DNA of 64,000 bases, taken from Allosphingosinicella sp. Lineage in GTDB: Bacteria > Pseudomonadota > Alphaproteobacteria > Sphingomonadales > Sphingomonadaceae. The DNA is taken from the NCBI GenBank assembly GCA_036403015.1, contig DASWRU010000048.1, positions 3,532-67,531 of the forward strand. Direction: 5' to 3'. The position numbers were made by a program, and so were the translations under genes. The notes beneath the pieces were generated by a model that saw only the letters and a program-made list of their open reading frames with translations, ran no database searches and had not been told where the DNA came from. The number at the start of each line of letters is the position of its first letter. Position 1 is the first letter of the stretch. Shown piece by piece: positions 8,813-22,531 of this stretch.

Positions 8813-10027
8813 TCATTCCTGCCCCTGGGGCTCCTTGCCGGGCTGGTCCGGATCCGAGGACTCGTCCTCCGCCTCCTGCGCCATCAGCGTCACCGGCGGG
8901 TAGGGCATGATGAGCGTCCCGTCCGGCGCCGCCGTGAAACTGGTCTGGCTCGGGTAGGCGAGCTGGATGTTCTCGCGGTTGAAGCGGTCGAGGATGGCGA
9001 GGCAGATGGCGTGGCGGGCGCCGAACACCTCTTCGTAATTGGTCGAGTGGACGTCGAATTGCAGCTCGAAGTCGAGGGTGGAGGCGCCGAATCCGGTCAT
9101 GCCGCAGCGCACCAGGCTGGTCTTGGGCTGGTCTTCCACGATCTCCTTCAGCATAGCCGGCAGCCGGGCGCATGTTTCCGGCGGCGTCTGGCAGACGAGG
9201 CCGAGCTGCATGACGATGCGCCTGTGCTCCAAATGCGCGAAATTGTGGATTTGCTGCTCCAGCAATTTGGAATTGGCGACGACGATCTGCTCGCCGCTGA
9301 GCGAGCGGATGCGGGTCGTCTTGAGGCCGATATTCTCGACATTGCCGCTGACGTCGCCGAAGCGGATGCCCTCGCCCTTGCGGAACGGCTTGTCGAACAG
9401 GATCGAGAGGGCGGCGAAGAGATCGGAGAAGATGCCCTGCGCGGCGAGGCCGATGGCGATGCCGCCGACGCCGAGGCCCGCCACCAGTCCGGTGACGTTG
9501 ACCCCCAGATTGTCGAGGATGAGGATGATCGCGATCGCGAACAGGGTGACGGTGACGAGCAGGCGGATGATGCCCACCGCGGAGCCGAGCGTCGTATGCT
9601 CCTCATTGGCGCCGACGCGGTGCTCGATATAGCCGAGCACCAGCTCGCGCGCCCAGATCGCTGCCTGGATGGCGAAAGCGATGACGAAGAGGGCGTTGAC
9701 GAAGCTGAGCAGGGTGGGCGGCGTGTCCGCATGCTCCGCCACCAGCTCCGCCGAGGCGAGGACGATGAAATAGACCTTGGTCTTGGCGAGCACCCGGGCG
9801 AAGATGACCGGCCAATGCGGGTCGCCGCCCCAGCGGGTGATGAGCTTGCAGCCGAGCGAGCGGATGGCGAGCATCGCCAGAGCCAGCGCAACGCCGATCG
9901 CCACGGCAATCAGGAGGCCGACGAGATTGCCGCCGATCCACTGCGACGCCTCGAGGGCGAGCCGATGGCTCTTCTCGCCGACGCCGGCGACCGTCTGGGT
10001 TACGGAGCCCGAATTCGCGAAGATCAT
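8813..10027 (-). CDS. mechanosensitive ion channel (MscS family)
   Basis: N-terminal TM helices followed by FDKPFRKGEGIRFGDVSGNVENIGLKTTRIRSLSGEQIVVANSKL. Confidence 0.88.
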   Translation of the reverse strand: MIFANSGSVTQTVAGVGEKSHRLALEASQWIGGNLVGLLIAVAIGVALALAMLAIRSLGCKLITRWGGDPHWPVIFARVLAKTKVYFIVLASAELVAEHADTPPTLLSFVNALFVIAFAIQAAIWARELVLGYIEHRVGANEEHTTLGSAVGIIRLLVTVTLFAIAIILILDNLGVNVTGLVAGLGVGGIAIGLAAQGIFSDLFAALSILFDKPFRKGEGIRFGDVSGNVENIGLKTTRIRSLSGEQIVVANSKLLEQQIHNFAHLEHRRIVMQLGLVCQTPPETCARLPAMLKEIVEDQPKTSLVRCGMTGFGASTLDFELQFDVHSTNYEEVFGARHAICLAILDRFNRENIQLAYPSQTSFTAAPDGTLIMPYPPVTLMAQEAEDESSDPDQPGKEPQGQE

Positions 10028-11127
10028 CAGGCCGCTTCCGCCTTCAGCCTCGTTTCCGCCTCGGCCGCCATGTCCGCCTCCACCTGCCGTTTCGACTTGC
10101 GAGCGGCCTTTGCCCGATGTTCGGCCTTGCCGTCCAGCTTGCGGGCTTCTTCGGGCAAGGCGTCGAGGAACTCGATCAGGCCCCTTTCTCCCGCGGAGAG
10201 GTATTTGGTCGGGCGCGGGAGACGGCGCTCGCCGATCGCTCCGGCGTCCTTGGCCGCCTCGATCAGCGCCGGATGGACGTAGGATTTCCGGCTGATCGCG
10301 GGCGTGTTGCCGAGCGCCTCCGCGACCGGCGCGATGACGCTCTTGAGCTTGACGCTGCCGTGCTTGCGCATCCGCCGCTCCATCTCCTCGAACGCGATGA
10401 CGCTCGCGCCCCAGGTGCGGAAGTCCTTTGCGGTGAAATCGTCGCCCATCACCGCCTTGATGTAACCGTTGACGTCGCCGGAGGTGACGGGACAGACCTC
10501 GCCCTCCTCGTTCACATATTCGAACAAATTCTGGCCCGGCAGGTCCTGCGTCCGCCTGGCGATGCGGACGAGGTTGCGGTCCGCGATCGTCACCGTCCGC
10601 CGGATCCCGTGCTTGCCCGCATAAGTGATCTTCAGCCGCCCGCGCTCCACCTTCGCGTGGCGGTTACGCAGGGTAGTCGCGCCGAAGCTCTTGTTCTCCT
10701 TGGCATATTCCTCGTTGCCGACGCGCATCCTGGTTTCGTCGATCAGCCGCACCACCGCCGCAAGCACCGTCTCCGGCGCCGTCGCCTTCCCCTTCAGATC
10801 CTCCTCGACCTGCTTGCGAAGCTTGGGCAGGGTGCGGCCGAACGCCGCGAGCCGCTCATATTTCAGCGCTTCCTGCTGCGCGCGGAAGCCGGGATGGTAA
10901 CGATATTGCCGCCGTCCCTTGGAGTCGTAGCCGATCGCCTGGATGTGGCCGTCGGGATCGGCGCAGAACCAGCAGCGCTCATAGGCCGGGGGCATGCCGA
11001 CGGCGTTGAGGCGGTCGATCTCCTCGCGGTCGGTCACCCGGCTGCCGTCGGCGCGGAAATATTGCCAGTAGCGCCCGCGGCGCTTGCGGGTGATGCCGGG
11101 CAGGGAATCGTCGACATAGCGGAGCAT
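10027..11127 (-). CDS. DNA topoisomerase IB (poxvirus-like bacterial type)
   Basis: YVDDSLPGITRKRRG N-terminus, GYDSKGRRQYRYHP, and catalytic-Tyr region AISRKSYVHPALIEA. Confidence 0.85.
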   Translation of the reverse strand: MLRYVDDSLPGITRKRRGRYWQYFRADGSRVTDREEIDRLNAVGMPPAYERCWFCADPDGHIQAIGYDSKGRRQYRYHPGFRAQQEALKYERLAAFGRTLPKLRKQVEEDLKGKATAPETVLAAVVRLIDETRMRVGNEEYAKENKSFGATTLRNRHAKVERGRLKITYAGKHGIRRTVTIADRNLVRIARRTQDLPGQNLFEYVNEEGEVCPVTSGDVNGYIKAVMGDDFTAKDFRTWGASVIAFEEMERRMRKHGSVKLKSVIAPVAEALGNTPAISRKSYVHPALIEAAKDAGAIGERRLPRPTKYLSAGERGLIEFLDALPEEARKLDGKAEHRAKAARKSKRQVEADMAAEAETRLKAEAA

Positions 11128-12761: not shown

Positions 12762-13964
12762 ATGCGCATCCTCCACGTGCTCGACCACAGCCTGCCGCTC
12801 CACAGCGGCTACACGTTCCGCACGCGCGCGATCGTCACCGCCCAGCAGGCGCGGGGCCTGGAGGTCGCCTGCCTCACCGGCGCGCGCCAGGGAAACGCCG
12901 GGGCCGATCCCGAAATCGTCGACGGCATCACCTTCTACCGGACTCCCGCCCCGACACCGGCGCCCTCGCCGCTCAGGGAATGGCGCGAGATCAAGGCGCT
13001 CGAGGCGCGGCTGGACCGGCTGGCGGAGGAATGGCAGCCCGATCAGCTCCACGTCCACTCGCCGGTGCTCAACGCGCTGGCGGCGCTGCGCGTCGCCCGG
13101 CGCCGCGGCCTCCCCATCCTCTACGAGATCCGCGCCTTCTGGGAGGACGCCGCGGTCGGCAACGGCACCGGCCGCGAGGGATCGCCCCGCTACCGGCTCA
13201 CCCGCAGCCTCGAAACCTGGGCGGCGCACCACGCCGACTCGGTGGCCGTGATCTGCGAGGGGCTGAGGCGCGATCTCGTCGCGCGCGGCGTCGATCCCGG
13301 CAAGATCTTCCTGGCCCCCAACGGCGTCGACATGAGCCTGTTCGGCAACCCGCTGGCTCCGGACGCCGACCTTGCCGGGCGCCTGGGGCTCAAGGACAAG
13401 GACGTGGTCGGCTTCATCGGCTCCTTCTACGATTATGAAGGGCTGGACGACCTCATCGCCGCGATGCCGCTCCTGCTCCAGACGCGGCCCGACGCGCACC
13501 TCCTGCTGGTCGGCGGCGGTCCGATGGAAGCCACGCTGAAGGCCCAGGCGGAGGCGTCGCCGGCCCGGCGCGCCATCCATTTCGCCGGGCGCGTCCCGCA
13601 CCACGAGGTGGACCGCTATTACGGCCTTATCGACATCCTCGCTTATCCGCGCAAGGCGATGCGGCTCACCGAGCTCGTGACGCCGCTGAAGCCGCTCGAG
13701 GCGATGGCGCAGCGCAAGCTGGTCGCCGCATCGAACGTCGGCGGCCATCGCGAGCTGATCGAGGACGGCGTCACCGGCACGCTCTTTCCCGCCGGCGACC
13801 CGCGGGCGCTGGCCGAGGCGCTCGACACTTTGTTCGCCAACCGCCCTTCCTGGGAGCAGCGCCGGGACGTCGCGTGGCGGTTCGTCGAACGGGATCGTAA
13901 CTGGTCGTCAAATATTTCCAGCTACATGCCGGCCTACCAGAAGCTGACGGGCAAGGCATCCTAA
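12762..13964 (+). CDS. glycosyltransferase family 4 (resembles exosortase A system-associated GT)
   Basis: MRILHVLDHSLPLHSGYTFRT N-terminus and a C-terminal EX7E-type region PLEAMAQRKLVAASNVGGHRELIEDGVTG. Confidence 0.8.
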   Translation: MRILHVLDHSLPLHSGYTFRTRAIVTAQQARGLEVACLTGARQGNAGADPEIVDGITFYRTPAPTPAPSPLREWREIKALEARLDRLAEEWQPDQLHVHSPVLNALAALRVARRRGLPILYEIRAFWEDAAVGNGTGREGSPRYRLTRSLETWAAHHADSVAVICEGLRRDLVARGVDPGKIFLAPNGVDMSLFGNPLAPDADLAGRLGLKDKDVVGFIGSFYDYEGLDDLIAAMPLLLQTRPDAHLLLVGGGPMEATLKAQAEASPARRAIHFAGRVPHHEVDRYYGLIDILAYPRKAMRLTELVTPLKPLEAMAQRKLVAASNVGGHRELIEDGVTGTLFPAGDPRALAEALDTLFANRPSWEQRRDVAWRFVERDRNWSSNISSYMPAYQKLTGKAS

Positions 13965-14815
13965 TGGCAAAGCACAACAAGAGCCGGCTTTCGTCCGCGC
14001 TTGACCTCGGCGTCGGCGCCTTTGCGGCGGCGTCGGCGGGCTTCGTCTTCTTCGCGATGCCGGAGGACCTCTTCTCCACGCTCGTCGTGAAGAGCGGCCT
14101 CCCCAAGGTGCTCGCCGCCGCTCAGCCGCCGCTCGGCGACACCGCCCGGCTCGGCATCGTCGCGGTCGTCGCCCTGGTCACGTTCGCCTTCGTCTGGTCG
14201 CTGCTGCGCGCGCTCGACGGCGTTCCCGCACGGGTCGCCGGGGTCGAGGCGGAAGGGGAGCCGGAGCCTCAGGGCGAGGTTCTCCGCCTCCGCAAGGCTG
14301 ACGCCCATCCCGACGCCCCCGCGCGCCGGCCGCTCCTGGCCGGTCGCGAGCTGGGCGAGCCGTTCGCCCCGGAAGGGGAAATGCTCCTCACCCAGGCCGA
14401 TCTGGCGCCGGAGCCCGTGTCGGTGCCGGAGGCCGAAGCCGAATTCGGGCCGCCGCCGGCAGCCGAGCCCGAGCCGGAGCCGGAAGCCGAGCCGGAGGCG
14501 CTCCCGTCCTTCCTGGTTGCCCAGGAACCGGAAACCGAGCCGGACTCCGAATCGGAAGACGCGGAGGAGGCGGCGCCGGAGCCGGGCGATTCGGCCGATC
14601 TCTCCCGGCTCATGGCGCGGTTCGAATCCGGCCTCGGCCACAAGCGCCAGGCGATTGTCCGCGCGGCCTTGGCGCCGGCGCCCGGCCCCCAGCCCGAACC
14701 CGCACCGGCACCCTCGGCGGAGCCCGCCGCGCCCGAAGAGCCGGCGGACCGCGTCGGCCACCGCCTCCGCAGCGCCATCACCGAGCTCCAGAAGGTCTCC
14801 GGACGCGCCGGCTGA
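13964..14815 (+). CDS. membrane-anchored Pro/Glu/Ala-rich hypothetical protein
   Basis: Start overlaps the upstream stop (TAATG). Two N-terminal hydrophobic segments are followed by low-complexity EPEPEPEAEPEA tracts. Confidence 0.5.
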   Translation: MAKHNKSRLSSALDLGVGAFAAASAGFVFFAMPEDLFSTLVVKSGLPKVLAAAQPPLGDTARLGIVAVVALVTFAFVWSLLRALDGVPARVAGVEAEGEPEPQGEVLRLRKADAHPDAPARRPLLAGRELGEPFAPEGEMLLTQADLAPEPVSVPEAEAEFGPPPAAEPEPEPEAEPEALPSFLVAQEPETEPDSESEDAEEAAPEPGDSADLSRLMARFESGLGHKRQAIVRAALAPAPGPQPEPAPAPSAEPAAPEEPADRVGHRLRSAITELQKVSGRAG

Positions 14816-15438: not shown

Positions 15439-16083
15439 ATGAAAGCTGATCCACGCGCGGCGCTCGATCGCCTCATTCAAGAGCGGGGGGACGATTATGT
15501 CGGCCTGTCGCGGCTGATCGGCCGCAACGCCGCTTATGTGCAGCAATATATCAAGCGGGGGACGCCGAAGCGGTTGGCCGAGGACGACCGCCGAGTGCTG
15601 GCCGGCTATTTCGGCGTCGATGAGACGCTGCTCGGCGGGCCCGCGCGTTCCGCGCCGGGCGGCGGGCTGGTGCCCGTCCCGCGCCTCGACGTCGGCGCTT
15701 CGGCGGGGGCGGGCGCTCTCGATCCGACGGAGCGGGCGGTCGGCAGCATGGCCTTCGACCCGGGGTGGCTGCGCCGCCTCGGGGTCGCCGATCCGGGCCG
15801 GCTGTCCATGATCCGGGTCGCCGGCGAGTCGATGGCGCCGACGCTCTCGGACGGCGACGAGATATTGGTGGACGGCGGCGATTCCGCCGCCAGGCTGAGA
15901 GAGGGGGTCTACGCCTTGCGGATCGACGATGCGCTGGTGGTGAAGAGGGTGACGCCCGGTCCCGCCGCCGGCCGCATCTCGGTGCGTAGCGACAATCCCG
16001 ACTATCCGGGCTGGCCCGATTGCGACCCGGCCGGCATCGACGTGGTCGGCCGCGTCGTCTGGGTCGGGAGACGCCTCGGCTAG
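15439..16083 (+). CDS. S24 peptidase / CI-LexA-like repressor
   Basis: N-terminal HTH (VGLSRLIGRNAAYVQQYIKRG). C-terminal autopeptidase with GESMAPTL (Ser) and ALVVKRV (Lys). Confidence 0.85.
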   Translation: MKADPRAALDRLIQERGDDYVGLSRLIGRNAAYVQQYIKRGTPKRLAEDDRRVLAGYFGVDETLLGGPARSAPGGGLVPVPRLDVGASAGAGALDPTERAVGSMAFDPGWLRRLGVADPGRLSMIRVAGESMAPTLSDGDEILVDGGDSAARLREGVYALRIDDALVVKRVTPGPAAGRISVRSDNPDYPGWPDCDPAGIDVVGRVVWVGRRLG

Positions 16084-16339: not shown

Positions 16340-16945
16340 CTAATCCACTCCCGCGGCGCGGAAGGCGAGGCTGGTCAGCGCCTCGGCGGCAAGCCCGATG
16401 GCGAGACCCGCGCCCACGTCGGTGGGATAATGGGCGCAGCGCGGGACCTGGACGAGCGCCAGCACGGCCGCCGCGCCACAGGCCGGAGCCGAATGCTCGG
16501 GATAGTCGCGGGCGAAGGCGCGGGCGACGGCCGCCGCACCGGCGCTGTGGCCGGAGGGGAAGCTGGTCTCCTCCTTCGCCTCGCTGCGGCCCGGCGCGGG
16601 GCGGTGGTCTTTCCCCGGCGCGTCGATCGACCGGGGCCGGGTGCGGTCGACGCGCTTCTTGACAAAGTCCTTGGCGAGCGTCGCCAGGCTGTGGGCCACG
16701 AACATGCGCGCGCCCGTGCGGATGAGCCGCCGGTCCTCGGCGATCAAGCCGACGGCGACGATTGCGCCGCAGAGGATGCGCATCTGCGGCTGGTCGCCGA
16801 GGTCCGCCACCGGCTCGAGCAGCCGCACGAGCAGGCTCTGCTCATGGCCCCGCGCCGTCCGCGCGGCGGCGGCATCGGCGGCGAGTGCCGCCTCGGCGGC
16901 GTCAGAGGGCTTCGGCTTCATGCCGCGCGAGGAGCGATGAGCCAT
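16340..16945 (-). CDS. PAP2 family phosphatase
   Basis: KKRVDRTRP, FPSGHS and RCAHYPTD acid-phosphatase motifs. An alternative start exists at 16921. Confidence 0.8.
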   Translation of the reverse strand: MAHRSSRGMKPKPSDAAEAALAADAAAARTARGHEQSLLVRLLEPVADLGDQPQMRILCGAIVAVGLIAEDRRLIRTGARMFVAHSLATLAKDFVKKRVDRTRPRSIDAPGKDHRPAPGRSEAKEETSFPSGHSAGAAAVARAFARDYPEHSAPACGAAAVLALVQVPRCAHYPTDVGAGLAIGLAAEALTSLAFRAAGVD

Positions 16946-17621
16946 AGCCGGCGAGGAGGTCCTCCGGTCCGTCGTAGAGGGCGCAGGCGCCGGCTTGCCT
17001 GAGCGCGTCGTCCGGAAAGCCGCCGGAGCGAAAGGCGAGGGTGCGAAGCCCGGCGCGGGCGGCGGCCTTCACGTCCCAAGGCGTGTCGCCGACGACGAGG
17101 ACGTCTTCGGGCCCGAGCGGATGGAGCCTGGCGAGCGCGGCCTCGAAAATGTCCGGACAGGGCTTCGACCTGTCGACATCGTCCTTCGAGGTGCAGGCGA
17201 AGACCAGGTCCTCGCAACCGATGAGCGCCAGATGATAGCCGACTTCCGCCTTGGACGAGGAGGAGGCGAGGACGATTTTGATCCCCTCCGCGACCAGCCG
17301 CTCGAACAGGGGCCGCACGCCGGCAAACGGCCTTGCGCGGGGGAGATAGCAGCGCTGGAACAGGTCGCGGCGATAGGCTTCGAGCGCGGCCTGCTCCTTC
17401 GCCGAAATGGCCGGCAGAAGGCTGGGGATCAGATTGTCCCCGCCTTTGCCCACCTGCCAGCGTATATCGTCGAACGGCACGTCGCGACCGAAGCGGACGA
17501 ACGCCTCCCGCCAGGCGGAGGCATGCAGGTCGTTGGTATCGACGAGCGTTCCGTCGACGTCGAACAGCACCGCCCGGACCGGGCGGCCGGTGTCGCAATC
17601 GGGGGGTAGGGGGTCGGTCAT
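16902..17621 (-). CDS. HAD family hydrolase
   Basis: Inner start MTDPLPP. Motif I is LFDVDGTLVDT, with GDTPWD near the C-terminus. Confidence 0.8.
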   Translation of the reverse strand: MTDPLPPDCDTGRPVRAVLFDVDGTLVDTNDLHASAWREAFVRFGRDVPFDDIRWQVGKGGDNLIPSLLPAISAKEQAALEAYRRDLFQRCYLPRARPFAGVRPLFERLVAEGIKIVLASSSSKAEVGYHLALIGCEDLVFACTSKDDVDRSKPCPDIFEAALARLHPLGPEDVLVVGDTPWDVKAAARAGLRTLAFRSGGFPDDALRQAGACALYDGPEDLLAGYGSSLLARHEAEAL

Positions 17622-17680
17622 ATGCCCGCCCAACGGGGCGGAGCGGGAAGAGTTTCCGCGCACGCGTTGCCGGGCGGCCC

Positions 17681-17896
17681 CTATTCGTCCCCCGCCGTGC
17701 GGAAGACGAGCAGCGCCCCGTCGGCATCGATGCCGGGGAGGCGCGGATAGGCGCCGATGAAGCGCTCCATGCCGGACGAGACGCGGAGCACCCACGCCTG
17801 GCCCTCGCCGGTCCTCAAGCGCAGCTCGAGGCGGGTGGCGACAGGAGGGGCGGTAAAGTCGAAGGCGGATCGCATGGGTAGGTCCATGCCAGCCAA
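17681..17896 (-). CDS. hypothetical small protein
   Basis: 71-aa ORF, no domain recognised. Coding status uncertain. Confidence 0.3.
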   Translation of the reverse strand: MAGMDLPMRSAFDFTAPPVATRLELRLRTGEGQAWVLRVSSGMERFIGAYPRLPGIDADGALLVFRTAGDE

Positions 17897-18000: not shown

Positions 18001-19995
18001 TTGACGGGGATCGTCGCCAGACTGCGTGAGATCGGTAGGACCGACCGGACGGTCGCGGACGAAGTGCGCCGTTCGCTGGTCGAGACCCTGTTCGTCTCCT
18101 CGACATCGCTGGGCGCCGGAGCCGCGGCCGGCGCCGCGGCGAGCACGGCCATCGCTTTGTCGAGCGGCGACCCGTGGCTGGCGGCGATCGCCATCGCCAT
18201 CGGCCTCACCGGCACCGCCCGTCTCTGCCACGCCGTCTTCTTCCACCGCAGCCCCGCCCACGACACGGTGGCGAGCGCGCGGTCCGAGACGATGTACGAG
18301 GTCGGCGCCTGGCTCTATGCGCTGCTGCTCGGCCTGCTCACTCTCCTCGCGCTGGTCCGCTCGGACAACGCGCTCCACCACCTGCTCGCGGGCACCGTGA
18401 CGATCGGCTATGCGGCGGGCATCTGCGGCCGCAACGCCGGCCGGCCGGTCATCGCCATCGGCCAGCTCGCGCTCGCTTCGCTGCCCATGTCGGTCGGCCT
18501 CTTCCTCAGCCCCGATCCGATCCGCTGGGTGCTCGGGATCATCGTCGTGGTGTTCATGGTGGGGATGACGGATATTACCTTCCAGACCTACTCGGCCGTG
18601 CTCAAGGCGATGTCGGCGACGCGCGAGCAGAAGCGGCTCACCGCCCGGTTCGAGCGTCTGGCCCGCTACGACGCGATGACCGGCCTCGAAAATCGCGGCG
18701 CCTTCCAGGACCGGCTCCAGGCGGAACTCGCGCAGATCGACGGCTCGGGCGAGCAGCTCGCCGTGCTGTGGATCGACCTCGACAAGTTCAAGGAGATCAA
18801 CGACAGCCTCGGCCATCCGACCGGCGACCGGGTGCTCTGCTCGGTGTCGCGCCAGCTCTCCTCGATCGTCGACGGCCGAGGCAGCGTCGCCCGCTTCGGC
18901 GGCGACGAGTTCGTCCTCCTCGCCAGGGGGACCAAGCCCGGCTTCGCGGAAGACATCGCCCGGGAGGTGATGCGCACCCTCGCCGTCCCGATGAACATCG
19001 ACGGCGCCTCGCTCCAGGCCACCGGCTCGATCGGAGTCGCGGTCTCGCCGGGCGACGGCAACGAGGTCGAGACCCTGCTGCAGCGGGCCGACATGGCGCT
19101 CTACCACGCCAAGTCCAACGGCCGGAACGATTATTGCCTGTTCCGCACCGCCATGGAGGAGGAGTTCCTGGAGCTGCGCGCGCTTGAGGCGGCGCTGCGC
19201 GAGGCGATCGGCAAGGAGCAGCTCGAAGTCTATTACCAGCCGATCGTCGACCTGAAGAGCGGCCGAATCACCTGCTGCGAGGCGCTGCTGCGCTGGCACC
19301 ATCCGGAGCTCGGCCTGGTCAGCCCCGCCCGCTTCATCCCGCTCGCCGAGAGCACCGGGCTGATCACCCCGATCAGCCATTGGGTGCTCGGCCAAGCCTG
19401 CGCCGCCGCGGCGCAGTGGCCGGAGGACGTCAGCATCGCGGTCAACATGTCACCGGCGCTGCTGAAGGACCTCCACCTCAGCCACATGATCCTCGGCGCT
19501 CTCTACATGTCGGGCCTGGCGGCGCGGCGGCTGGAGCTGGAGATCACCGAAAGCGTGCTGATCGACGAGAACGCCCAGTCCAACGCCCTCATCCGCGAGT
19601 TCCAGAAGATCGGCCTCAAGCTCTCGATCGACGATTTCGGGACCGGCTATTCCTCGCTCACCTATTTGAAGAAATACCGGTTCGACAAGATCAAGATCGA
19701 CACCAGCTTCATCGCCGACGTGACCCGCAGCCGCGAGGCGCGGGCGATCATCCATGCCCTCGTCGGCCTAGCCGCCGAGCTCGACATGGAGATCGTCGCC
19801 GAAGGGATCGAGACGGAGACCCAGCTCGGCTACGTCACCGGCGCCCGCTGCACCGCCGCGCAGGGCTTCTTTCTCGGCCGTCCCATGCCCGAAGCCGAGA
19901 TCCGCGCCCGCCTCGACGCGCAGAGCCGCGGCGAGGATTGGTCGGGCGGCGCGGGGACGGACGTGCCGCCGCTGCTGAAGCGGCTGCAGGCCTGA
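18001..19995 (+). CDS. membrane-bound GGDEF-EAL protein (diguanylate cyclase/phosphodiesterase)
   Basis: About 5-6 N-terminal TM helices, then RFGGDEFVLL (GGDEF), then CEALLRWHHP, DDFGTGYSSL and EGIETE (EAL). TTG start per the track. Confidence 0.88.
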   Translation: MTGIVARLREIGRTDRTVADEVRRSLVETLFVSSTSLGAGAAAGAAASTAIALSSGDPWLAAIAIAIGLTGTARLCHAVFFHRSPAHDTVASARSETMYEVGAWLYALLLGLLTLLALVRSDNALHHLLAGTVTIGYAAGICGRNAGRPVIAIGQLALASLPMSVGLFLSPDPIRWVLGIIVVVFMVGMTDITFQTYSAVLKAMSATREQKRLTARFERLARYDAMTGLENRGAFQDRLQAELAQIDGSGEQLAVLWIDLDKFKEINDSLGHPTGDRVLCSVSRQLSSIVDGRGSVARFGGDEFVLLARGTKPGFAEDIAREVMRTLAVPMNIDGASLQATGSIGVAVSPGDGNEVETLLQRADMALYHAKSNGRNDYCLFRTAMEEEFLELRALEAALREAIGKEQLEVYYQPIVDLKSGRITCCEALLRWHHPELGLVSPARFIPLAESTGLITPISHWVLGQACAAAAQWPEDVSIAVNMSPALLKDLHLSHMILGALYMSGLAARRLELEITESVLIDENAQSNALIREFQKIGLKLSIDDFGTGYSSLTYLKKYRFDKIKIDTSFIADVTRSREARAIIHALVGLAAELDMEIVAEGIETETQLGYVTGARCTAAQGFFLGRPMPEAEIRARLDAQSRGEDWSGGAGTDVPPLLKRLQA

Positions 19996-20021
19996 GGCGT
20001 TCGTAACCGGTCCGAAGCGTC

Positions 20022-20960
20022 TTACGCCGCCGCCAGCCTCGCCTGGGCGTCGACCAGCCGCTTCATCAGCTTCAAATCGCCGGCGCTGAGGCACAGCGCG
20101 CTGTCGGCCCAGACGTCGACCACCGCATTCAATTCGTCCAGGCTGATCGGATCGACCAGGCTGGAGGCGTGGTAGATGCCGCGGTGGCCGGACTGCTTGC
20201 GGCCGTTGCGGGCGATATAGGCGCGGACCGCCTCCTCGCCTTCGCCCGGCTCGGCGATGACGTGGACGATGCCGAGATCGTGCATTTCCTCCGCCGTGTA
20301 GAGCCGGCTGGACAGCATCATCTCCTCGGCCTTGGCGAGGCCCACCTTGCGGGCGAGCAGGCAGTGCGCGCCCATGCCGGGGAAGAGGCCGAAGGCGATC
20401 TCCGGCAGGCCGAAGCGCGAGCCCTTTTCGGCGACGATGACGTTGAACGAGAGCACCGCCTCGAAGCCGCCGCCGAGCGCGTCGCCCTGGACGAGGCCGA
20501 TGGTGACGATCGGCAGATCGAGCCGCTTCATGTTGGCGTGCAGGATCGAGACGCAGTCGCGGCCGTAGCGCACCAGCCCCTCGCGGTCGCCCGCGGCGAT
20601 GAAGCCGGCGAACAGATCGAGGTCGCCGCCGAGGTTGAACACCCCGGGGAAGCGCGAGCCGAGCACGAGATATTTCAGGCCCTCGGAAGGGTCCGCGAAC
20701 TCGCGGCGTATTTCCGACTGCCAGCGCTGGAAATCGCGCAGCATCGGCCGGTTGAAGTTCGGCCGGTCGACCGGCGTCATGTAGGTCCACAGCGTCCCCA
20801 GCGCCGCTTCCCACCGGACGTCGAGCTGTCCGAGATCGAAAAGGCTGGTCCCGGCCGGCCTCTCACGGTGCTGGAGTGCGATGGTCCCCGCCAGCGTGTC
20901 GGAAGACAGCGGGAGCCCACCCGCATCCTCCGCCGGCTGGAGACTGAAATGGTGATTCAT
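20022..20960 (-). CDS. rpfF: RpfF-like crotonase (DSF-family signal synthase candidate)
   Basis: VFNLGGDLDLF, LVQGDALGGGFEAVLS, GLPEIAFGLFPGMGA and the C-terminal VWADSALCLSAGDLKLMKRLVDAQ segment parallel the Xanthomonas RpfF sequence as I recall it, including both catalytic Glu positions. Confidence 0.7.
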   Translation of the reverse strand: MNHHFSLQPAEDAGGLPLSSDTLAGTIALQHRERPAGTSLFDLGQLDVRWEAALGTLWTYMTPVDRPNFNRPMLRDFQRWQSEIRREFADPSEGLKYLVLGSRFPGVFNLGGDLDLFAGFIAAGDREGLVRYGRDCVSILHANMKRLDLPIVTIGLVQGDALGGGFEAVLSFNVIVAEKGSRFGLPEIAFGLFPGMGAHCLLARKVGLAKAEEMMLSSRLYTAEEMHDLGIVHVIAEPGEGEEAVRAYIARNGRKQSGHRGIYHASSLVDPISLDELNAVVDVWADSALCLSAGDLKLMKRLVDAQARLAAA

Positions 20961-21031
20961 CCTTGCCCTCCAACGAGTTGGTTGACCGTCAAGTAAGCAT
21001 ATCGCCGCGGCAGTAACAATCGGGACTGAAC

Positions 21032-21048
21032 GGTTAACGGTGTTAACC
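21032..21048. promoter_or_regulatory. palindrome in the rpfF-fadL divergent region
   Basis: GGTTAAC-GGT-GTTAACC, perfect 7-bp arms, in an AT-richer 245-bp intergenic region. Confidence 0.35.
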
Positions 21049-21205
21049 TTTTCACTGTTGCTTGAAAGACTCGTTTTGGAGGCAGTTTGGACAAAGTCGG
21101 GCAGAGCCGGGCCTTGCCTTCGAAAAGTGCTTGAGAAACAAGGCTGTGCCCCGTAGTTCGAGGGCGCGGCAGGGGCGCCGCTGACGTGGTTTCGGGGGTG
21201 CGGAT

Positions 21206-22531
21206 ATGGGTGGGGCAGGGCTCAGGAGCCGTTTCGGCAGCCGGGGGATGTGGCTTTTCGGGACGGCCCTCGGGCTCGTCTTAACGCCGCCGGCGCCGCT
21301 TCGCGCGGCCGGATTCTACCTCCAGGAACAATCGGTTAGAGGATGGGGCCGGGCGAATTCCGGCGAGGTGGCGGACGACGGGCCGGCCTCCTTGTGGTGG
21401 AACCCCGCGGCCATCGGCGGGATCGAGGAGAGCGAGGCGAGCTTCGGCGCCACCGCGGTCCTGCCTTCCGGCGAGCTCGACGACCGCGGCACCCTCATCG
21501 ACCGCCCGATCGTGCCGCCCGCGCCGGTCGGCGGCCCCTCCTCGATGGCCGATCCGATCCAGAAGGGGATCGCGCCGAACATGGCGCTGGCGCTCCGCCT
21601 GGGCGACCGATTCGCGCTCGGCTTCACCGTCGCGGCGCCGTTCAGCTTCACCACCGACTACGACCCCAATGGCTGGCAGCGTTATTCCTCGATTCGCACC
21701 CGCCTGGTCACGCTCGACCTCCAGCCCTCCATCGCCTGGGCGCCCTCGCGGGCGCTGAGCGTCGGCGCGGCGCTCAACCTCGAATATGCGGACGCCTGGC
21801 TGTCCAACGCGCTCCCCAACCTCGCGCCCGGCTCCGCCGACGCGCGGCTGCGGCTGACCGGGAGCGGCTGGGACCTCGGCTGGAGCGCCGGGGCGCGGCT
21901 TCGGCCGGTGGAGGGCGTCTCGCTCGGCATCGCCTACAAGTCGGCCGTCTCCCACAAGCTCGAGGGGCCGGTGGACATTTCCGGCCTGCTCGCCCCGCTC
22001 GCCGCCCGCAACGTCCACGCTCAAACCGTCGCGCGCTTCACCACGCCTTGGCAGCTCATCGTCGGCGGCCGCTTCGCCGTCGGGCCGCGGCTGACGCTGA
22101 ACCTGCAGGCGGTGCGGTTCGGCTGGAGCAAGTTCGACCGGATCGCGCTGGCGGCGCCGCTGAGCAGCGCGATCGAGGAGAATTACAAGGATACGTGGAG
22201 CCTCGCCGTCGGGATCGACGCCCACGCCTCCGACCGGCTGACCCTTCGCGCCGGCATCCAGCGCGACCCGACGCCGACCCGCGACGCCAGCCGCGACGCT
22301 CGCGTGCCCGATGCCGACCGGCTGGACTACAATGCCGGCCTCAGCTGGCAGGCCGGTCGGCGCCTGACGCTCGATGCCGCCGCGGCGCTCACCGATCCGG
22401 GCAGCAGCCCGATCGCGCGCCAGGAGCGTTTCTATGCCGGGACCGGTGCCCAGACCGACATCCTCACCGCCGGCCGCGCCCGCAACCAGCGGGTGATCGT
22501 GCTTGCGCTCGGCGGACGCCTCCGCTTCTGA
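21206..22531 (+). CDS. FadL/TodX family outer-membrane long-chain fatty acid channel
   Basis: Signal peptide (probably from M at 21248), then AGFYLQEQSVRGWGRANSG...WWNPAAIGG and a beta-barrel repeat pattern to a C-terminal F. Confidence 0.8.
   Translation: MGGAGLRSRFGSRGMWLFGTALGLVLTPPAPLRAAGFYLQEQSVRGWGRANSGEVADDGPASLWWNPAAIGGIEESEASFGATAVLPSGELDDRGTLIDRPIVPPAPVGGPSSMADPIQKGIAPNMALALRLGDRFALGFTVAAPFSFTTDYDPNGWQRYSSIRTRLVTLDLQPSIAWAPSRALSVGAALNLEYADAWLSNALPNLAPGSADARLRLTGSGWDLGWSAGARLRPVEGVSLGIAYKSAVSHKLEGPVDISGLLAPLAARNVHAQTVARFTTPWQLIVGGRFAVGPRLTLNLQAVRFGWSKFDRIALAAPLSSAIEENYKDTWSLAVGIDAHASDRLTLRAGIQRDPTPTRDASRDARVPDADRLDYNAGLSWQAGRRLTLDAAAALTDPGSSPIARQERFYAGTGAQTDILTAGRARNQRVIVLALGGRLRF

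Follow-up and report, generated by a model that had tools for sequence, protein, structure and literature searches.

A 64,000-nucleotide stretch of an Allosphingosinicella sp. genome (contig DASWRU010000048.1, positions 3,532 to 67,531), hereafter the window, carries a gene for a crotonase of the RpfF family of diffusible signal factor (DSF) synthases, convergent with a gene for a membrane protein that has GGDEF and EAL output domains. The two genes probably form a DSF-family fatty-acid signalling module coupled to cyclic di-GMP (c-di-GMP) via a new sensor module. Membership of the enzyme in the synthase family, its intact catalytic residues, the conserved pairing of the two genes, and the modularity and novelty of the six-transmembrane (6-TM) domain of the GGDEF-EAL protein are established. 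The part that would be new is the 6-TM domain. The locus is organized as follows.

18001..19995, + strand: gene for the TM-GGDEF-EAL protein, 664 amino acids, TTG start codon
18001..18645, + strand: N-terminal 6-TM input domain (residues 1-215), a candidate signal-sensing or RpfF-regulating module
18646..19995, + strand: GGDEF (residues 221-376) and EAL (residues 397-628) output domains, assigned with Pfam
19996..20021, no strand: spacer of 26 nt between the convergent stop codons
20022..20960, - strand: RpfF-family (NCBIfam PRK08788) crotonase, 312 amino acids, a candidate DSF-family cis-2-enoic acid synthase
20961..21205, no strand: divergent rpfF/fadL control region, 245 bp, with conserved blocks and a palindrome
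21206..22531, + strand: FadL/TodX-family outer-membrane channel for hydrophobic compounds, 441 amino acids

The three open reading frames (ORFs) and the 26-nt distance between the stop codons (19996..20021) agree with the original prediction, which was made from the DNA letters alone, and independent gene calling on three metagenome contigs with an identical crotonase agrees with the window ORFs. A search of the 26-nt convergent spacer for a terminator-like hairpin found none.

Judged by its sequence, the crotonase is a member of the RpfF/Bcam0581 DSF-synthase family and not of the ordinary enoyl-CoA hydratases. It scores 351.5 bits on the NCBIfam model PRK08788 (cutoff 177), and the next-best non-RpfF model, that of an ordinary enoyl-CoA hydratase, gives 73 bits. 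On the same PRK08788 model RpfF of Xanthomonas campestris (Xcc) reaches 428 bits and Bcam0581 of Burkholderia cenocepacia 395 bits, the former reference sequence being taken from a metagenome contig and the latter from the PDB match listing. A phmmer search against all PDB sequences returns the RpfF structures 7zq7, 3m6m, 5fus and 6dgn as the four best matches, at 153-165 bits; the next crotonase after them scores 64 bits. The alignments to 3m6m, 5fus and 7zq7 are essentially end to end, spanning residues 41 or 64 to 309 with the C-terminal third included, and the Pfam ECH_1 match is limited to residues 97-236. Identity is 34% to Xcc RpfF and 34% to Bcam0581 (over 264 aligned residues). The assignment to this clade is read from the gaps in hidden Markov model (HMM) and phmmer scores; in an unrooted neighbor-joining tree, built with no ordinary-crotonase outgroup, the alphaproteobacterial proteins group on their own. 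The resemblance to RpfF, first suspected from the peptides VFNLGGDLDLF, LVQGDALGGGFEAVLS, GLPEIAFGLFPGMGA and VWADSALCLS...LMKRLVDAQ, all of which are found in the translation, is thus real and specific, and the HMM comparison showed no clustering with ordinary hydratases. Because JGI already auto-labels homologs "DSF synthase", identifying the synthase is no novelty; the NCBI label is "crotonase/enoyl-CoA hydratase family protein".

Residues G111, G163, E167 and E187 of the crotonase correspond to G86, G138, E141 and E161 of Xcc RpfF, which are thioesterase and catalytic residues (PMC9040811, citing Liu et al. 2018). Both catalytic glutamates announced in the original prediction are therefore present as E167 and E187. 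Together with G163 and M196 they are invariant in 127 of 127 relatives, and G111 and W284 are invariant in the 125 relatives whose alignment reaches them. The placing of DspI alongside RpfF as a member of the same clade did not hold. DspI (PA0745 of Pseudomonas aeruginosa; PDB 5wyb) is likewise a crotonase, implicated in cis-2-decenoic acid synthesis, but by sequence it falls among the ordinary crotonases, with 54 bits to the window protein against the 153-165 bits of the RpfFs. Its gene sits in a fatty-acid metabolism cluster without an adjacent sensor (PMC4504480).

The pairing of the two genes was followed through 80 GTDB species loci, each containing a relative of the crotonase and searched with the neighbour proteins of the window. 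A convergent TM-GGDEF-EAL gene lies beside the synthase in 78 of them, across Sphingomonas and Allosphingosinicella, which bears out the convergent arrangement first noticed in the window and mirrors the rpfF/rpfR and rpfF/rpfC layouts. Carriers include the cultured S. melonis, S. faeni, S. aerolata, S. phyllosphaerae and S. deserti, many Leaf isolates and one Novosphingobium. At these loci the synthase is 56-64% identical, the sensor 40-47% and its N-terminal block alone 36-46%, and the genes flanking the pair are not conserved outside the close clade.

The association reaches beyond the Sphingomonadales. A Caulobacteraceae metagenome-assembled genome (MAG; locus L045) encodes an RpfF homolog (59% identical) convergent with a 648-residue protein in which the same 6-TM domain, including IGYAGGICGRNAGRP, is fused to a hybrid histidine kinase (HisKA-HATPase-REC); no HPt domain was detected in this kinase. 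At three loci of Pseudolabrys (Hyphomicrobiales; L127-L129) a TM-PAS_7-GGDEF-EAL gene is divergent from a gene for a 320-residue crotonase that shares 59% identity with the window crotonase and reaches 358 bits on the PRK08788 model. What stays constant over three orders, two orientations of the genes and three output architectures is the combination of an RpfF-subfamily enzyme with the 6-TM domain. This constancy is the best evidence that the 6-TM domain, and not the c-di-GMP enzymes, is the part with a functional tie to the synthase. Two other features mark the Pseudolabrys loci. A co-oriented trio encoding DUF898, M48 peptidase and DUF1499 proteins follows the TM-PAS-GGDEF-EAL gene identically in L127-L129 (8451..11702 in L127, 8455..11703 in L129), and L129 has, 2.5 kb upstream of its crotonase gene, an AMP-binding (acyl-CoA ligase-like) gene that is a possible RpfB-like partner.

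Residues 1-215 of the GGDEF-EAL protein match no Pfam domain even at E<10, the sole match being to a spurious viral protein (E 0.12). AlphaFold2, run with a 106-sequence alignment, models this block with a mean local confidence (pLDDT) of 95.7 and a global score (pTM) of 0.90, as a pair of short helices at the N-terminus and, after them, six long ones, of which the last continues as a linker into the GGDEF domain. Since GGDEF is cytoplasmic and the N-terminus is basic, the predicted topology is N-in/C-in, with periplasmic loops of just 3-5 residues. Conservation is strongest at R74, at G136-Y-A-A-G-I-x-G-R-N-A-G-R-P149 and at Q155, the extended motif GYAAGIxGRNAGRPxIAxxQL lying at the cytoplasmic end of TM4. 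If the topology is N-in as assumed, the modelled helix boundaries would put the conserved polar residues R74, R144, N145, R148 and Q155 in the cytoplasmic leaflet or at its interface. The block, which is modelled with confidence, is an undescribed input domain without a Pfam or PDB match. The original prediction had proposed a stretch of five to six transmembrane segments in place of the PAS domain of RpfR. The membrane block is there, modelled with six long helices, and residues 1-215 contain no PAS domain; what had been missed is its nature as a modular, widespread and so far undescribed input domain found beside this synthase subfamily.

Searched exhaustively with an HMM, 1.84 billion cluster representatives yield the 6-TM domain in 1022 clusters at E<=1e-3 and in 428 at E<=1e-10 (clusters at 50% identity). 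This search replaced a word-indexed search with the TM-domain alignment, in which hydrophobic words swamp the candidates and which gave 14 matches only. In the 150 best HMM hits the match is at or near the N-terminus, and a phmmer domain census of the best 148 reveals TM-PAS_7-GGDEF-EAL, TM-GGDEF-EAL, TM-GGDEF and TM-HisKA-HATPase-REC architectures, along with many truncated fragments. The 6-TM domain is thus a sizeable signalling input family, of about 1000 clusters at 50% identity, for which there is neither a Pfam model nor a solved structure.

The output half of the window protein is conventional. Pfam assigns it GGDEF at 150 bits and EAL at 244 bits, and direct reading finds GGDEF, EALLR, DDFGTGYS and the other catalytic signatures intact, as had been claimed for the GGDEF and EAL motifs. 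No RxxD I-site was found upstream of GGDEF. Among 77 orthologs of TM-GGDEF-EAL architecture the GGDEF motif is intact in all, and the EAL motif reads E[A/T/V]LLR in 76. With GGDEF intact and EAL reading EAL, ETL or EVL, selection appears to act on both output domains. Among solved structures, MorA (4rnh/4rnf; 4rnh at 336 bits) and a diguanylate cyclase (5m3c, 327 bits) come closest, and the phosphodiesterase MucR (5m1t) matches the EAL part at 191 bits. The solved fragments align to residues 213-634 only, so that the N-terminal membrane block has no counterpart in them. MorA and MucR of P. aeruginosa are both membrane-anchored proteins. They differ from the window protein in their other sensor modules (MHYT in MucR, PAS domains in MorA) and in having no linked synthase.

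We privilege the following sequence of events, in which we infer the chemistry, what the ligand is and that it binds directly, which way c-di-GMP changes, and what FadL does. By homology, the crotonase would dehydrate 3-hydroxyacyl-acyl carrier protein (ACP) to cis-2-enoyl-ACP and then cleave the thioester to release a free cis-2-unsaturated fatty acid, as RpfF and Bcam0581 do with their dehydratase and thioesterase activities (PMC6361424, PMC4504480). This product, being lipophilic, would partition into the inner membrane, where the 6-TM domain may perceive it and shift the balance between the diguanylate cyclase and phosphodiesterase activities of the attached domains, most likely toward c-di-GMP degradation as in RpfR. 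The level of signal would thereby be coupled to c-di-GMP-controlled biofilm formation, motility and extracellular polysaccharides. The conserved cytoplasmic N-terminal helices possibly also restrain the synthase, a second role that can be considered because both known receptors bind and inhibit RpfF. In the Allosphingosinicella-like clade the divergent FadL may help the acid cross the outer membrane, as an accessory and not as a core component. A further-reaching proposal, which we put forward tentatively and which may well fail, is that the 6-TM domain with its GYAAGIxGRNAGRP motif constitutes a third class of DSF-family receptor, specific to Alphaproteobacteria, sensing in the inner membrane and combined with interchangeable GGDEF-EAL, PAS-GGDEF-EAL and hybrid-kinase outputs.

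Several observations weigh against the signalling module. On the enzyme side, the crotonase scores 185.7 bits on NF053515, the Xanthomonad RpfF equivalog model, far below its cutoff of 550. Bcam0581, a proven synthase of Burkholderia DSF (BDSF), is likewise below this cutoff (183 bits), and with similar scores on PRK08788 and on the Xanthomonad model the crotonase relates to Xcc RpfF as the proven BDSF synthase does. Enzymes of the RpfF family act in addition as broad thioesterases that release many free fatty acids (PMC4504480), for which reason the product could be an ordinary fatty acid. Genes for an rpfB-like ligase, rpfC, rpfG and rpfH were searched for in the window and none was found there. 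The pairing has exceptions too. Sphingomonas sp. 3-13AW carries a second rpfF paralog, 60% identical, without an adjacent sensor (L031, 7770..8915), besides a normal pair on another contig (L036). In the closest genome (L004, RpfF 92% identical) no sensor gene follows rpfF: collinearity with the window ends right at the rpfF stop, 1.5 kb before the end of the contig, and this last segment (8936..10454) neither matches the window nor encodes an EAL domain. Rearrangement, insertion or a break in the assembly could each account for this.

On the sensor side, nothing directly links the 6-TM domain to fatty-acid binding, its putative role. Foldseek comparison of the AlphaFold2 model with the PDB gives no significant match (best E 0.18, TM-score <=0.39). 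An hhalign comparison of 71 sequences of the block with 30 N-termini of Xanthomonadales RpfC gives a probability of 0.3% (E 0.23). Homology of the block to the RpfC sensor was rejected on this negative profile comparison. The 6-TM family is large, with its 1022 clusters, and its genomic context as analysed covers three lineages, all reached via RpfF or close relatives and two of them starting from RpfF. Finally, a distant paralog of the domain occurs on a plain GGDEF protein. This 367-residue protein is encoded beside the pair in S. melonis (L044, 11311..12414, + strand), and its N-terminus, 25% identical and without the GRNAGRP motif, served as the positive control of the hhalign comparison, in which it was detected at 96%.

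The behaviour of characterised DSF receptors raises an alternative that we regard as unlikely, in which the synthase-sensor link is real and the 6-TM domain mainly tethers and inhibits the synthase, after the model of the REC domain of RpfC and the FI domain of RpfR, or senses the state of the membrane, without being a ligand receptor. The membrane state would be, for example, fluidity or free fatty-acid load, as perturbed by the RpfF thioesterase, and c-di-GMP would then report lipid homeostasis instead of cell density. Binding and repression of RpfF by both characterised receptors (PMC6361424, PMC4504480) and the broad-specificity thioesterase activity of RpfF, yielding many free fatty acids (PMC4504480), are consistent with such a role, and the conserved cytoplasmic helix pair and cytoplasmic-face motif of the model could serve docking. 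Tethering is, however, compatible with ligand sensing, RpfR doing both, and the conserved polar residues, buried within helices, would seem to suit a ligand or conformational site better than docking.

The third gene of the locus encodes a FadL/TodX channel. Pfam recognises residues 33-409 of its product as Toluene_X (266 bits), and a signal-like N-terminus and the hatch NPA (in WWNPAAIG) are read directly in it, placing it in this family. It is not an equivalog of E. coli FadL, as it gets 84 bits on a model whose cutoff is 585, and its closest structure is the P. aeruginosa homolog 3dwo (94 bits). One gene caller gives 427 amino acids and another 441, and the true start is possibly Met15. The gene adjoins the synthase only where the synthase is at least 74% identical, in Allosphingosinicella-like MAGs and S. 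parva, and even there is missing at some loci (L026-L028); the adjacency is not seen in Sphingomonas proper, in the Caulobacteraceae MAG or in Pseudolabrys. This synteny is weak evidence since it is limited to such close evolutionary distance, and we downgraded FadL from core component of the module to accessory. Of what had been proposed for it, the divergent FadL/TodX channel with its 245-bp spacer stands, and the epithet of dedicated porin has weak support. An uptake role for RpfF-derived fatty acids has been proposed for FadL (PMC4504480), and the title of a study in rhizobia ties it to extracellular long-chain N-acyl-homoserine lactones (AHLs) (PMC9938287). It is plausible that the channel helps a hydrophobic acid cross the outer membrane.

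The channel also invites a metabolic interpretation. The crotonase would be a hydratase, isomerase or thioesterase of fatty-acid or xenobiotic catabolism, served by FadL as importer, and its GGDEF-EAL neighbour would be unrelated. FadL/TodX channels usually take up hydrophobic substrates, the NCBI label goes no further than the crotonase family, and neither an acyl-CoA ligase nor a signalling regulator was found nearby. Yet the link of FadL to the enzyme is confined to one narrow clade, while that of the sensor holds in three orders even though orientation and outputs have changed. The enzyme, moreover, belongs to the family of two proven signal synthases, 90-100 bits above any metabolic crotonase, and beta-oxidation genes are not adjacent to it. 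A metabolic role is thus most improbable. We give as little credit to the idea that the pair listens to or quenches foreign DSF, for instance from leaf or soil xanthomonads, the crotonase modifying or inactivating imported cis-2 acids. Many carriers are phyllosphere Sphingomonas co-occurring with Xanthomonas, FadL would suit uptake, and interspecies DSF sensing is known, for example through PA1396 (PMC4504480). Nevertheless, the catalytic and pocket residues of the synthases are all retained, and DSF turnover uses RpfB/FadD-type ligases (PMC4504480, PMC9973270), none of which is linked to the pair in the window.

Control elements were looked at in an alignment of the rpfF-fadL region from 13 clade members. 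A block CTTGTTTCTCAAGCGCTTTT, with the inverted repeat CTTG-N5-CAAG, is conserved about 60 bp upstream of fadL, and GATTGT and GATATGCTTAC are conserved about 35 bp upstream of the rpfF start; these blocks are possibly promoter or regulator sites. The spacer also contains the perfect palindrome GGTTAACGGTGTTAACC at 21032..21048 (one match against 0.02 expected), flagged as terminator-like yet located between divergent genes. It was rejected as a conserved operator, being present only in same-species contigs.

Beyond the sensor gene, genes for a HAD-family phosphatase and a PAP2 lipid phosphatase occupy 16340..17795 (- strand). They are kept throughout the Allosphingosinicella-like clade (59-77% identity) and are not found in Sphingomonas proper; with conservation solely inside that clade they were rejected as parts of the module. 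In S. melonis, HAD and PAP2 genes unrelated to these lie on the opposite side of rpfF, apparently by coincidence, and other Sphingomonas loci are without them. An S24-peptidase protein of 214 residues with a LexA/CI-like repressor fold (15439..16083, + strand) stands alone about 1.9 kb from the module, adjoined by a low-complexity ORF rich in Pro, Ala and Glu (13964..14815). Between 28001 and 36000 the G+C content drops to 0.58-0.64, from about 0.70 in the rest of the window; ribonucleotide reductase is encoded in part of this segment, according to the gene calls of a matching contig (L002). No rRNA, tRNA or other Rfam family was detected in the window.

To our knowledge, nearly all described DSF-family signalling comes from gamma- and betaproteobacterial pathogens and has two "core" perception routes, RpfC/RpfG and RpfR, and we know only of AHL signalling having been studied in soil and leaf Sphingomonas, Caulobacteraceae and Hyphomicrobiales. 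A full-text literature search for RpfF or DSF in Sphingomonas, Sphingomonadaceae and other Alphaproteobacteria returned reviews and KEGG-based surveys only and, as the original prediction had supposed, no characterised module of this kind in sphingomonads. If our interpretation is correct, DSF-type quorum sensing would be widespread in these three groups, and the DSF signal class would extend to abundant plant- and soil-associated Alphaproteobacteria. A third type of receptor would be added to the known ones, and this is testable since culturable strains carry the pair, among them well-studied phyllosphere isolates (S. melonis, S. faeni, Leaf strains). Sphingomonas carriers share leaves with DSF-signalling Xanthomonas, so the module could bear on cross-talk and plant protection.

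Among known systems, in which the sensor gene is convergent to rpfF and coupled to c-di-GMP (PMC4504480, PMC6361424), RpfF/RpfR of B. cenocepacia (Bcam0581 and Bcam0580) and Cronobacter resembles the window pair in that a synthase is convergent with a single GGDEF-EAL protein, so that signal perception would couple directly to c-di-GMP turnover. In that system rpfF and rpfR are convergently encoded, and RpfR carries an N-terminal RpfF-interaction (FI) domain and a ligand-binding PAS ahead of GGDEF-EAL (PMC6361424). The window sensor shares the convergent GGDEF-EAL output and lacks both FI and PAS: RpfR is soluble, with a BDSF-sensing PAS and an FI domain that inhibits RpfF, whereas the window sensor has a 6-TM membrane domain. 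The Pseudolabrys relatives are unlike the window protein in having a PAS_7 behind the TM domain.

RpfF/RpfC/RpfG of X. campestris shares with the window the synthase family (34% identity), with E141, E161 and the pocket residues conserved, a sensor gene convergent to rpfF and a polytopic membrane input with minimal periplasmic exposure. The HisKA-HATPase-REC fusion of the Caulobacteraceae MAG reproduces part of the RpfC domain set. The differences lie in the sensor of RpfC, whose 5-TM input domain, also present in RpfH and PA1396, has no detectable homology to the 6-TM domain, and in the output, which is a fused GGDEF-EAL and not a phosphorelay to the HD-GYP protein RpfG. With neither PAS nor FI domain and a negative hhalign comparison, the 6-TM block is neither RpfR-like nor RpfC-like. 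The module is RpfF/RpfR-like in its presumed function and closer to RpfC in its sensor logic, with a sensor that belongs to neither family.

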